A DNA stretch of 64,000 nucleotides from Candidatus Buchananbacteria bacterium (GCA_903859075.1 CAIOLF010000024.1:5048-69047); one strand, 5' to 3'; counted from the first letter of the stretch, positions 29,385 to 35,338 are shown. A program made the numbers and translations. The notes: generated from the letters alone by a model not told the origin.

Positions 29385-30221
29385 TTAATCGCCTGGCTTC
29401 ATGATGTTACTATCATCAAAAGCATTAAGCTCCGGCCTGACTTCTATGCTGTCAATGCCGGGCAGGCGATAATTCCAGTCCACCTCGATCTGCCTGGCCT
29501 CCCCCGCTCTGAATTGTTTAACATCTATGTAATTAATCGAAACCAATTCGCCAGCGCTATAGAGAAATACCTGCGCCCCCACGTTCCAAAAACCGAAAGC
29601 GGAATTATTAGTCATTTTAAAAACCACCCGATTAGGCTCGCCCGCCGCGGCGTTACCAGCATAAAGCTTCTCGTCAGAAACTTCAAAGCGTAACCGACTA
29701 TTAATGGTCGATTCCACCTTCTCTACCCGCTTCCAATATTGATTGATAATCTCCAGCTTAGAGGCGCTGACCTCGTGCCCCAAATCCATTAGATATTTCT
29801 CCTCACCGGGCATGGCAAAGCTATGCCTATAAGAACCCTCCTTATCGCCATCGCTGAAACGATAATCAAAAGTCACCAGCCAATCATTGTTGGGATTTTT
29901 TGTCAGCGCCAAAAAATCATAACGTCCATTGTCCTCGGAAAATGATCGGGAATCAGAAATGATTAATTCTTGGGGACGCCGGCTATTTAGCAATTCCAAA
30001 TAGGGGCTGCCGGTAAACAGCAGCCGGCCGACGCGATACTGATCAAAATTGTAATTGGCGATAAAATCAGCCGTCTGCCAGCCAAATAATAACCATAGTA
30101 AAACGGCCGCCACGATCAAAAAAATCGTCGTGTAGCGCCTGATTTTCAGCTTATGGGAAATATACCAATAACTCAGCTTGAGCTGCTTATCGGTAAGATT
30201 GTGAGTCGGTGCTTCCACCAT
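29385..30221 (-). CDS. hypothetical membrane-anchored protein
   Basis: single N-terminal TM segment (IFLIVAAVLLWLLFGW) followed by a soluble domain. Confidence 0.4.
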   Translation of the reverse strand: MVEAPTHNLTDKQLKLSYWYISHKLKIRRYTTIFLIVAAVLLWLLFGWQTADFIANYNFDQYRVGRLLFTGSPYLELLNSRRPQELIISDSRSFSEDNGRYDFLALTKNPNNDWLVTFDYRFSDGDKEGSYRHSFAMPGEEKYLMDLGHEVSASKLEIINQYWKRVEKVESTINSRLRFEVSDEKLYAGNAAAGEPNRVVFKMTNNSAFGFWNVGAQVFLYSAGELVSINYIDVKQFRAGEARQIEVDWNYRLPGIDSIEVRPELNAFDDSNIMKPGD

Positions 30222-30252
30222 ATGGCTGTATTATAGCATAAAAACTATAATA

Positions 30253-31381
30253 TTATAATACCGAAATTACTTTTTTAATCTTGTATCCTTGGCAATGCTG
30301 GAGCAGCCCCAGATATGATTGTCGGCTTTGCTTCAATTTTTCAGCGCCAAGTAATCCAGATTCGGTTAGCAAGCGTTTTTCTTTCAACTTTTTTAGCATC
30401 CTTCTTTTGGTCTTGGTCCGTAAAACGCGATGATCAAAAAAATTAATCATGCCTAAAAAATCAACGCCCGAAGATAGTGTCTTAATAAAAATCTTGTCCG
30501 GATGTAAGGCTAATTTAAGTTTGTTTGACAAATAATCGCCTATCAGCGGAATTAAATTTTCCAAATATACTTTGTCGTCAAAAAATATTACAAAATCGTC
30601 GGCATAACGGATATAATGCTTTATTTTTAACTCATGTTTGATAAATTGATCAAATTTATTCAGATAAATATTGACCAGCAATTGCGAGGTAAGGTTGCCG
30701 AGCGGCAGGCCATGCGCCTTTGTATTTTCCCCCTCCCCTTTATAAGGGGAGGGTTGGGGAGGGGTAATTTCCGAATTATCATTACCCCCTCTGGCTCCCC
30801 GTTTGAAAGGGGGAGAAAAAAACACCTGCCGCAAAACTATCAATCACCTCATCCAATAAACCTAAAATTCTCTTATTGGGAATATATTCAGCTAAAATAT
30901 TTTTTAATATTCGATGGTCGATACTGGCAAAAAATTTCCTGATATCGCCTTTCAAAATCCAGCAAGTATGGGTATTATTTTTACTAACCGCATAGGCGAA
31001 TTTCTGGAATCTGACTAGGGCTTTATGCGTCCCTTTCCCTAGCCGGCAAGAATAGGAATCGCTGATGAAAATGCGATCGAAGAAAGGATACAAAATCCGA
31101 TAAATGGCATGATGGACTAATCTGTCCCTGACGCCGGCTTTATGGATGTTTCGGGGTTTGGGATCGCAGATGTTAAAGGCCTGATAGCCGCCATGGCGAT
31201 AATTGCCAGTTGCCGGATCAGAGTGCAATGCGATAAGATTATTCATGAGGCGCGATTGGAACTGCTGGACGTCTGATTTATTTCTTTTGCCTTTGATAAA
31301 TTCTCGCCAGGCGGATAATAAATTTTCTAAACTAATAATATCTTCAAACGTATGGCTCAATTGGATTTTGTTCCGGTTCAT
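30253..31381 (-). pseudogene. DGR-type reverse transcriptase, split into two frames by a ~100-bp GC-rich palindromic insertion (a homopolymer error is an alternative)
   Basis: N-part (frame A, to 30782): SLENLLSAWREFIKGKRNK, KPRNIHKAGVRDRLVHHAIY, SYSCRLGKGTHKAL, ILKGDIRKFFASIDH; C-part (frame B): HGLPLGNLTSQLLVNIYL (DGR hallmark GNLTSQ), IRYADDFVIFF, LHPDKIFIK; the frames differ by 1 nt across the insert at 30721-30821. Confidence 0.75.
30721..30821. mobile_element. GC-rich palindromic miniature element (copy 1), two CTCCCC-loop-GGGGAG hairpins in inverted orientation, inserted in the RT gene
   Basis: ccccctcccctttataaggggagggttggggaggggtaa ... taccccctctggctccccgtttgaaagggggag; compositionally alien to the AT-rich flanks; second copy at 62749-62852. 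Confidence 0.6.
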
Positions 31382-31778
31382 AATGATAAAATAAATTCTA
31401 CCCCCCCCCTCGTCCACGAATTTATTCATTTTTAATAAAGCCGTTGCCGCGTACAAATCGTGGCATGAGTGGCTGAAAAACTTTCCCAAACACTCGCGCT
31501 ATGCTCTGGGCTCGCGGGCCGACCAGATATTTCTTGATCTGCTGGAACTGCTGTTTACGGCCGGCTATCTGCCTAAAAATAAAAAACTGGAGCCGGCAAT
31601 AAAATCCATCGGCAAAATAGATCTGTTGAAATTTTATCTGCGCTTATGCTGGGAAATGAAACTTCTAAGCGACAATAAATTCCAAATTCTGGGTGTAAAA
31701 ATGGAGGAAATCGGCCGGCTGTCGTGGGCCTGGAAAAATAATTTAGAAAAAACATCCTCGCCGGAAGCGAAGATGTAA
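31352..31778 (+). CDS. Avd-like four-helix-bundle accessory protein, antisense to the RT start; continuously in frame only from 31395
   Basis: translation from 31395: ...NLFIFNKAVAAYKSWHEWLKNFPKHSRYALGSRADQIFLDLLELLFTAGYLPKNKKLEPAIKSIGKIDLLKFYLRLCWEMKLLSDNKFQILGVKMEEIGRLSWAWKNNLEKTS, which fits the TIGR02436/Avd pattern (L.vwq.a...FPK.e.y.LgsQ...); ATG 31352 is in frame only if the C9 run (31401-31409) were C8. Confidence 0.45.
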
Positions 31779-31793
31779 AGCAAAAAACCGCTG

Positions 31794-31916
31794 GCGGACA
31801 ACCGCGAAACGCCAGTTGTCGTTGAAGTCATTCTCAATCCTGTTGAGGTTCAGGTTGCGCTTCTGATCATTCCTGTTCAGATACGCGAAGTTGCGATTGC
31901 CATCGGGATGAAGCCG
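31794..31916 (-). repeat. DGR template repeat (TR)
   Basis: about 123 bp aligning to 32174-32296 at +380; at 23 mismatch positions this copy has T on the plus strand (A on the minus sense strand); encodes an AAY-rich Asn tract in the target frame. Confidence 0.85.
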
Positions 31917-32085
31917 ATTATACGCCCGATACCGTCAGGAACACCGCCGATTGAATGCTCTCTCGGCTGAATCTTGCTTGGGATCTTTAAATCCGCCAGT
32001 ATCGGGCGCCAAGCAGTTTTTTGTTTTTTTAGGTATTCCCGAGCCGTAGCCGGGGAAATATTAACCTACTTTCATTATAGATAAA

Positions 32086-32132
32086 TATGTTAAAAAGAAA
32101 AAGGCCTGCCCGACAGAAATCGTCAGACAGGC
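32086..32132 (-). terminator. hairpin plus U-tract downstream of the DGR target gene/VR
   Basis: minus-strand gcctgtctgacga-tttc-tgtcgggcaggc followed by ctttttctttttaac. Confidence 0.5.
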
Positions 32133-32155
32133 GCAAGGGGTCAAACTTCAAGGGG

Positions 32156-32857
32156 TCAAGGAGCCACCTGCTCGCGGACAACCGCGAAACGCCAGCCGTC
32201 GCGGAAGCCATCCCCAACCCTGCCGAGGTGCAGGTAGCGCCTCCGACCACCCCCGTCCAGATCCGCGAAGTCGCGAGAGCCACCGGGATGAAGCCGGATA
32301 CTTCCGAGCGCGGCAATCGGAAACTTCCGTTGCAAGTCGCGCTGCGTCGCTCCCAAAGCCAGCAACTCCTCGATACGCGCGAAGCGGTACCGATAGCCGG
32401 CTTTTTGCTCGGCCAGCCACTGGTTGACCGCTTCCAATTCGGCGATGACCGCATCGCCATTGTTGAAATAGCGGTCAAAGTGGAGCAGTTCCACTTTTAC
32501 GGCCGTCTTGCCGATTCCCTTGACGGGAAAATGCTCAGCCGTGATTTCGGGATGAACGGAGTCATACCCACCGGCAGAGATCATTTGCCCCAGGTCTTGG
32601 CTGAAGTCAACCACAACAGCCCAGGTCGACTCGAAGTATTTGGAGACGACTTCAGCGGCCTGTCGCGCTTCCGCGACAATCATTTCGGCGATCTTACGGA
32701 GTGTCTCCTCGCCTTTGGCGCTTGCCAAATAGCAGATGCACTCTCCGACATTACCGCCTACCTCCTTGATAAACTTCACGAGAGCGATAATGACCTGCTC
32801 GATCATGCCCATCAGTGACACGATCAACTCCGGTTTTTCCGATGTTCCTTTGGCCAT
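32156..32857 (-). CDS. DGR target (variable) protein, 233 aa, with the VR in the C-terminal ~40 codons
   Basis: AAAGGAGG lies 7 nt upstream of ATG (32857); C-terminus ...IRLHPGGSRDFADLDGGGRRRYLHLGRVGDGFRDGWRFAVVREQVAP is encoded by the VR; GC-rich; no obvious signal peptide. Confidence 0.7.
   Translation of the reverse strand: MAKGTSEKPELIVSLMGMIEQVIIALVKFIKEVGGNVGECICYLASAKGEETLRKIAEMIVAEARQAAEVVSKYFESTWAVVVDFSQDLGQMISAGGYDSVHPEITAEHFPVKGIGKTAVKVELLHFDRYFNNGDAVIAELEAVNQWLAEQKAGYRYRFARIEELLALGATQRDLQRKFPIAALGSIRLHPGGSRDFADLDGGGRRRYLHLGRVGDGFRDGWRFAVVREQVAP
32174..32296 (-). repeat. DGR variable repeat (VR)
   Basis: see TR; all differences lie at TR adenine positions (one exception at 31883/32263). 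Confidence 0.85.
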
Positions 32858-33178
32858 GGTAGGCCTCCTTTCGATTTTCGGCTCGCCCCTCATTCCGGAC
32901 CAATTCCAGAACCCCAGACTCGCCAAATGTACCGCCATATTTATAGCATATTATTTATATTTTGTCAATAATTTTGAAACATTTTCAAATTGACAAATAT
33001 TTTATTTAAATTTGAATAAAAAAAATAAAAGGGCAGGCACAAGGCACTGCCCCCTACAATATGCAATACTAATTAATAAACCTAATAAAAAGTCCTCAAA
33101 ATATCCCTAAAAAATAATTGCCACGACTTCTTTTTTTTGCTATAATTACCTTGTTAAACTAGCTAAAATAACCCCTAA

Positions 33179-35338
<2,160 letters not shown>

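Follow-up and report, generated by a model that had tools for sequence, protein, structure and literature searches.

The diversity-generating retroelement (DGR) of Bordetella phage BPP-1, with the order mtd-avd-TR-brt, is the paradigm through which the working of other DGRs is read, and the locus described here, from Candidatus Buchananbacteria, has much in common with it. In both, transfer from TR to VR is adenine-specific, an Avd accompanies an RT bearing [LIV]GxxxSQ, a CLec-fold protein carries the VR at its C-terminus, and a GC-rich shared 3' end (in our locus apparently IMH-like) is found together with a hairpin downstream of the VR. Unlike in BPP-1, avd is inverted and sits between TR and RT, and the target, of 233 aa, is encoded on the chromosome and lacks a signal peptide, where BPP-1 has a phage tail fibre. 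Moreover, the conserved RNA in our locus is 5' of TR, whereas in BPP-1 the RT-10 motif is on the other side of TR (Weinberg et al.), in the spacer between TR and RT.

The nearer comparison is with the DGRs of CPR/DPANN genomes. In the part of Wu et al. 2018 (PMC5758913) drawn on here, architecture B3, "TR-(avd)-RT", with a reverse-strand avd between TR and RT, accounts for 90% of CPR DGRs. This is the arrangement in the window (the whole 64,000-nucleotide stretch of DNA that was analysed), with TR on the minus strand, avd on the plus strand and RT, from 31381, on the minus strand. Judged by that part of the source, the B3 elements and ours have in common the order target/VR - TR - inverted avd - RT, the host phylum, a small target without a Pfam domain, the RT clade and the occasional non-adenine TR/VR difference; they differ in that the RT in the window is frameshifted. 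The same part of Wu et al. 2018 makes no mention of a 5' structured leader, a 3' hairpin, or an avd leader with a homopolymer.

The features of the locus, from the target gene to the end of RT, are as follows.

32156..32857, minus strand: target gene, 233 aa plus stop; N-terminal three-helix segment, then a C-type-lectin-like domain
32174..32296, minus strand: VR, 123 nt, codons 187-227 of the 233-aa target ORF
32104..32132, minus strand: terminator-like hairpin of the target gene, 12 pairs, then a T-run
31908..32039, minus strand: conserved structured RNA directly 5' of TR, by covariance model and RNAalifold
31794..31916, minus strand: TR, 123 nt, 33 adenines, 10 AAY codons
31752..31776, minus strand: 3' hairpin of TR, 11 pairs plus a U-run, GC-rich, 18 nt 3' of TR
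31410..31778, plus strand: avd body, four-helix-bundle Avd, on the strand opposite to RT, TR and VR
31401..31409, no strand assigned: homopolymer, C9 on the plus strand and G9 on the RT strand, 19 nt upstream of the RT ATG
31352..31400, plus strand: avd leader ORF, its ATG antisense to RT codon His10, open to the poly-C tract
30782..31381, minus strand: RT N-terminal part, 199 aa, motifs 1-3, ending at TAA 30782-30784
30253..30843, minus strand: RT C-terminal ORF, +1 frame, with GLPLGNLTSQ (motif 4), YADD (motif 5) and thumb
30712..30832, minus strand: RT insert (hairpin cassette), 121 nt between "DSF" and "GLPLGN"

The retroelement and its relatives

The original prediction had paired two 123-nt intervals at a constant offset of 380, with 24 mismatches, 23 of them at positions where the RT-proximal copy has T on the plus strand. 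Ungapped comparison reproduces the pair, and all 23 coordinates are exactly as claimed; the 24th mismatch, at 31883, is A>C on the plus strand, i.e. T>G on the minus strand. Read on the minus strand, 23 of the 33 TR adenines are altered as against 1 of the 90 other bases (Fisher p = 4e-16), the changes from TR to VR being A>G 18 times, A>C 3 times and A>T twice. TR adenines occupy codon position 1 in 14 cases, position 2 in 19 and position 3 in none, and the 23 that changed are all at position 1 or 2; variation at the TR adenines could yield about 10^19 protein variants. The distal copy, proposed as the last ~40 codons of the minus-strand gene 32156-32857, begins on a codon boundary, and recomputed translations of TR and VR match those given earlier. 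Thus, on the two points that had been named in advance as decisive, a spectrum without adenine bias and a repeat outside the target frame, the bias holds and the VR is in frame. The 3' 22 nt of the VR (32174-32195) are identical to TR and 68% GC, with divergence beyond, in what appears from the alignment to be an IMH-like counterpart of the IMH/IMH* arrangement. BLAST of TR, target, RT, avd and cassette against the 64-kb window turned up neither another TR/VR nor another RT, nor any further copy of the cassette, so the cassette is not a repeat within the window. The DGR interpretation of TR/VR, RT and target is supported, and the identification of the locus as a DGR is near certain.

The target gene is preceded by a Shine-Dalgarno sequence (AAAGGAGG) 7 nt upstream of its ATG at 32857. 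Structure prediction had been proposed as a check for a lectin fold, and the model does have a C-type-lectin fold, with the VR as its C-terminal strands; by this model the VR encodes the predicted C-terminal surface of a small C-type-lectin-fold protein. A Foldseek search with the model gave no significant match. Sequence identity to Treponema denticola TvpA (PDB 2Y3C) and to FGE-type C-type-lectin folds is 9-13%; the target domain is much smaller than these, and its N-terminal helical segment has no counterpart there.

The adjacent RT belongs to a very large Patescibacteria family (8000 scored matches, the best at 66% identity) and matches the RVT_1 profile at 77.7 bits. GNLTSQ and YADD, the hallmarks on which it had been called a DGR-type enzyme, are present, and GLPLGNLTSQ and YADD are invariant in an alignment with 24 homologues; what had been overlooked is that its reading frame is broken. 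The frame break bears on the activity of the element, not on its identity as a DGR.

The locus had also been put forward as an uncharacterised instance from a group rich in DGRs. The abundance in CPR genomes is borne out, but the cassette is less unusual than was thought, being of the standard "TR-(avd)-RT" type with at least 590 related loci, among at least 600 matched stretches, in GTDB species genomes, at 53-66% RT identity. An avd directly upstream of RT on the opposite strand is found in 74 of 81 related loci; six of the seven loci without it have almost no sequence upstream of RT. The 63 TR/VR pairs recovered from related loci are all adenine-specific, and across them A>G makes up 60%, A>T 23% and A>C 17% of changes; with a lineage mean of 60%, the excess of A>G in the window (18/23) was rejected as a special feature. 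The geometry is shared as well, with the VR about 360-590 nt upstream of TR, and TR ending some tens of nt short of the avd stop.

Structured RNA on both sides of the template

The earlier reading also passed over two RNA features, one on each side of TR. Conservation at the nucleotide level extends over the roughly 110 nt directly 5' of TR, where nhmmer finds matches in more than 40 loci, and loci that share this leader have RTs only 55-60% identical. Behind an A-rich leader, the structured RNA folds into three helices: P1 (32009-31998/31933-31922), P2 (31994-31991/31984-31981) and P3 (31967-31964/31949-31946). By RNAalifold, 19 of 23 pairs have compensatory changes; 95.7% of alignment cells are paired, as against 31-49% in slid controls, and double-sided changes number 208 as against 22-51. 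The covariance model built on it has a single match in the window (104.7 bits, E 1.4e-21) and 78 matches in 87 sources, including about 38 loci outside the seed alignment. It detects one copy, and only one, in each DGR locus, in every case immediately upstream of TR, and gave no match in a locus that has targets without an RT. The leader matches no Rfam family; the Rfam search over 29900-33300 at E<=1 returned a single chance miRNA match, inside the hairpin cassette of RT.

On the 3' side, the hairpin at 31752-31776 overlaps the avd stop codon on the other strand, and an equivalent is visible in nearly every related locus. With loose criteria it is detected in 68/72 loci versus 30/72 random controls, and with strict criteria in 20/72 versus 5/720. 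The hairpin at 32104-32132, which would end the target transcript, lies 24 nt past the target stop codon and 42 nt past the VR end. Because the target has this terminator of its own, and because TR is flanked by a covarying RNA on its 5' side and a hairpin with a U-run on its 3' side, we infer that TR is a self-contained non-coding RNA gene.

If the Bordetella paradigm applies, TR would be transcribed as this self-contained non-coding RNA, RT with Avd would copy it into cDNA with misincorporation opposite adenines, and the cDNA would take the place of the VR, with the GC-rich 22 nt that the two share at their 3' ends serving for homing. Helix P1, of 12 bp, lies directly 5' of TR and ends 5 nt before it; it probably marks the 5' limit of the templated cDNA, as the place where synthesis would stop.

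The avd gene and the two frame breaks

Between TR and RT, on the plus strand, lies an avd gene (31352-31778) that was missed in the earlier reading of this DNA. Its body matches PF22296 (bAvd) at 47.9 bits against a cut-off of 40, and NF033474 at 57.9 bits (E 1e-15), under that profile's cut-off of 80. With dN/dS of 0.15 against the related locus L003, and 0.04-0.24 across comparisons, the avd body appears to be under purifying selection. Gene callers skip it, and the frame of the body has no ATG, GTG or TTG ahead of 31626. Such genes are routinely overlooked because the start codon is antisense within RT, behind a poly-C tract that shifts the frame: with C9 as assembled, the avd ATG is one base out of frame with the body, and C8 or C11 would restore it.

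Comparison among relatives argues that the leader ATG, antisense in the first RT codons to the conserved His10, is the genuine avd start. The frame from this ATG to the tract is open in 53/53 related loci, whereas of the two alternative frames one is open in 7/53 and the other in 5/53; at RT codon 8 (Leu), TTA or CTA occurs in 0/34, although these make up 33% of Leu codons elsewhere in the same RT genes; and in close relatives Avd proteins of 142-154 aa are called with the leader at their start, the closest of which, with a degenerate C5 tract, is 88% identical to the hypothetical fused Avd of the window. A run of G7-13, poly-C when read on the avd strand, precedes the RT ATG by 15-25 nt in nearly every relative. 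The ATG is in frame with the body in 8/53 genomes and out of frame in 45/53, requiring a shift of +1 in 27/53, the window among them, and of -1 in 18/53. In-frame tract states, at 8/53, are rarer than expected by chance.

In one species, with sequences 99.7% identical, the tract is G10 in eight assemblies and G9, which is in frame, in a ninth. The same-RT contig sets of P0257 and P0196 had no tract polymorphism; a variable block in P0196 was discarded, as it sits at a contig end. Candidate routes past the tract may include a phase switch at the DNA level, transcriptional or ribosomal slippage, and downstream TTG starts, which are available to avd in roughly half of related loci. Re-initiation at the avd start after an upstream ORF was ranked lower, since the stops lie 5-35 codons past the tract at positions that are not conserved; the leader-fused Avd proteins of relatives also count against it.

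The second frame break is in RT itself. The +1 break falls between 30785 and 30843, in the region of the hairpin cassette, and no intact RT ORF is found. The cassette consists of three hairpins (30795-30815, 30761-30788 and 30731-30753); its 121 nt are not divisible by 3, and it contains an A7/T7 run at 30816-30822, where removal of one T would restore the frame. A -1 ribosomal frameshift at U_UUU_UUC was rejected, since the shift needed is +1, and an N-terminal extension of RT through the G-run is not conserved, its frame being open in only 38/53 loci. At exactly the position of this cassette, 16 of 79 related RTs have palindromic inserts that keep the frame and are 12-65 aa long; the rest have a linker of 2-9 aa. 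In the relative nearest to the window (82% nucleotide identity) the cassette is a different one, and the alignment of the two breaks off at 30833. The reverse complement of our cassette aligns better than the sense strand to the cassettes of L003 and L008 (with L003, a score of 75 versus 46). It follows that the site is a hot spot at which hairpin insertions turn over fast, and in the window one such insertion has broken the RT frame.

Past activity and present state

The VR, with 23 of 33 template adenines replaced, is a record of past rounds of mutagenesis. The state of the element now is another matter, and the reading that we favor, and hold to be likely, is that this is a chromosomal Patescibacteria/CPR "TR-(avd)-RT" DGR with past activity that is now most likely off, with RT split by a one-base frame error at the A7/T7 run of the cassette and the avd ATG off by one across C9. 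An identical VR-bearing protein is encoded on six public contigs, which come from five samples or more, and it is the sole member of its 90% cluster. The L001 contig differs from the window by 40 SNPs in gyrB and by none in 31814-33450. A 28-nt stretch adjacent to the VR had no match in a scan of JGI metagenome contigs. As an argument, stasis of the VR is weak, because a relative with an intact RT also has an identical VR in four contigs. Because RT is frameshifted, avd is out of frame and the VR is unchanging, we think it probable that the element is not working in this population at present, whether through decay or through an OFF phase.

It is unlikely, in our estimation, that the DGR is instead fully active, some cells or transcripts getting past the frame errors through slipped-strand length change, RNA-polymerase slippage or ribosomal frameshifting at A7/T7 and C9, which would provide RT and Avd in sufficient amount. 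In favor of this, 45 of 53 relatives have the avd ATG out of frame, yet the body is conserved at the low dN/dS given above, and in the G9/G10 species the VR differs between assemblies. Indeed, differences between those assemblies are concentrated in the VR, so that the DGR of that species is active. Loss of one T would mend the RT frame. Against this view, all 80 related RTs that were fetched are single-frame, so none needs such a bypass, and no VR variant of the target protein is on record. Moreover, in bacterial transcriptional slippage, seven-base runs of A or T are poor sites, which also counts against bypass at A7/T7.

Less probable again is that both breaks are assembly or sequencing errors and that the real RT and avd are intact. 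Both do fall in homopolymers, and the contig of another assembly ends at about 30830, within the cassette, which suggests a difficult region. Against this, an independent 4165-nt contig from another sample has the identical split RT, called as ORFs of 211 and 190 aa (the former from a GTG equivalent to 31417), because of which the RT break is probably real; A7 is short for an Illumina consensus error, and out-of-frame avd tracts recur in 45/53 independent genomes. That there is no retroelement here, only a duplicated piece of a gene whose copies drifted apart through ordinary mutation or gene conversion, has nothing beyond the presence of a repeat to recommend it and is refuted by the spectrum (23/24 differences on adenines of one copy, p = 4e-16), besides facing a template without adenines at third codon positions, an adjacent RT and Avd, and the same adenine pattern in 63 related loci; we give it almost no weight.

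A broader reading, which we offer tentatively and regard as less probable than not, is that across the lineage homopolymer slippage gates the mutator through the avd tract. Avd, and hence targeted hypermutation, would then be available only in cells or transcripts with a slipped tract length, as a stochastic and reversible ON/OFF switch; C9 in the window (+1) would be the OFF state, to which the A7/T7 slip in RT is added. The template would be carried on a self-contained non-coding RNA made up of the three-helix leader, TR and the terminator hairpin, which has no Rfam match. The comparison that comes to mind is with contingency loci, the poly-G/C tracts in genes of Neisseria, Campylobacter and Helicobacter. 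Like these, avd has a C7-13 tract shortly after its start codon, whose length sets the frame and varies between near-identical genomes (G9 versus G10). Unlike them, the avd tract also lies in the 5' region of a divergent RT gene, and in-frame states are rarer here (8/53) than expected by chance.

As an instance of a DGR this locus contributes little, since exactly this cassette is already known to abound in CPR bacteria. It is, however, a clean case of a VR that keeps the signature of mutagenesis while RT and avd are both out of frame, and thus a caution for surveys that score TR/VR pairs as "active DGRs". Three lineage-wide features, the covarying 5' RNA, the 3' terminator hairpin and the overlooked avd, have a bearing on the working and control of the DGRs of these uncultivated organisms. 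What merits further study is the RNA leader, together with the way in which avd and its homopolymer are arranged. Should the tract be a switch, two classic mechanisms of bacterial diversity, contingency loci and retroelement-driven hypermutation, would be joined in it.

Structured RNA and hairpins around the template repeat

Immediately 5′ of the template repeat (TR) of the diversity-generating retroelement (DGR) lies a conserved three-helix RNA (window 31908-32039, minus strand), which is also found at the equivalent site in the related loci L003, L007-L086, L087, L095, L103 and L106. Its helices show strong covariation, and no family matching it was found in Rfam. A covariance model, with 78 hits, places it as a single copy per DGR locus. 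Two terminator-like hairpins were located on the same strand:

31752-31776, minus strand: terminator-like hairpin, 3′ of the TR
32104-32132, minus strand: terminator-like hairpin, 3′ of the target gene

Across relatives, it is the structure of the post-TR hairpin that is kept and not its sequence; the hairpin overlaps the stop codon of avd on the opposite strand.

The reverse transcriptase insert and the avd start

Between motifs 3 and 4 the reverse transcriptase (RT) has an insertion hot spot, where 16 of 79 related loci hold a palindromic hairpin insert of 12-65 aa. The window carries one:

30712-30832: hairpin cassette in the RT, between motifs 3 and 4

This cassette appears to be inverted when compared with its counterparts in L003 and L008. 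In L110, the closest relative, the cassette differs from that of the window. Contigs break at the cassette site in two assemblies.

In the first part of avd (window 31352-31409, plus strand; 53 related loci), the start codon lies antisense to codon His10 of the RT. A tract of C7-13 stands between this codon and the avd body, and in 45 of the 53 genomes its length leaves the two in different frames. Gene callers usually skip or shorten avd.

Target relatives, base composition and an active DGR

GC content contrasts markedly within the cassette (30253-32857), at 57.7% for the target gene, 44.8% for avd and 39.3% for the RT (whole window, 46.9%), and the high GC of the target extends beyond the variable repeat (VR). 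Against L001, a contig from another sample, 37 of the window's 40 differences fall inside a 450-nt gyrB patch (33451-33899), a pattern that suggests either a recombination tract or an assembly chimeric between strains.

Two features of the target family come from P0027, P0031 and L004 (2975-3712 and 10001-10738). Some members have two tandem lectin-like domain copies, both of which finish in a VR-like end. Paralogues that lack an RT within 10 kb occur in other genomes, and these may be targets that are diversified in trans.

Finally, nine assemblies of a related locus (L087-L094 and L010) share 99.7% identity across 2.7 kb, and nearly all their differences lie within the VR (L087 561-650), together with one base in the G tract, the RT-strand complement of the avd poly-C. 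This is a related DGR caught while active.
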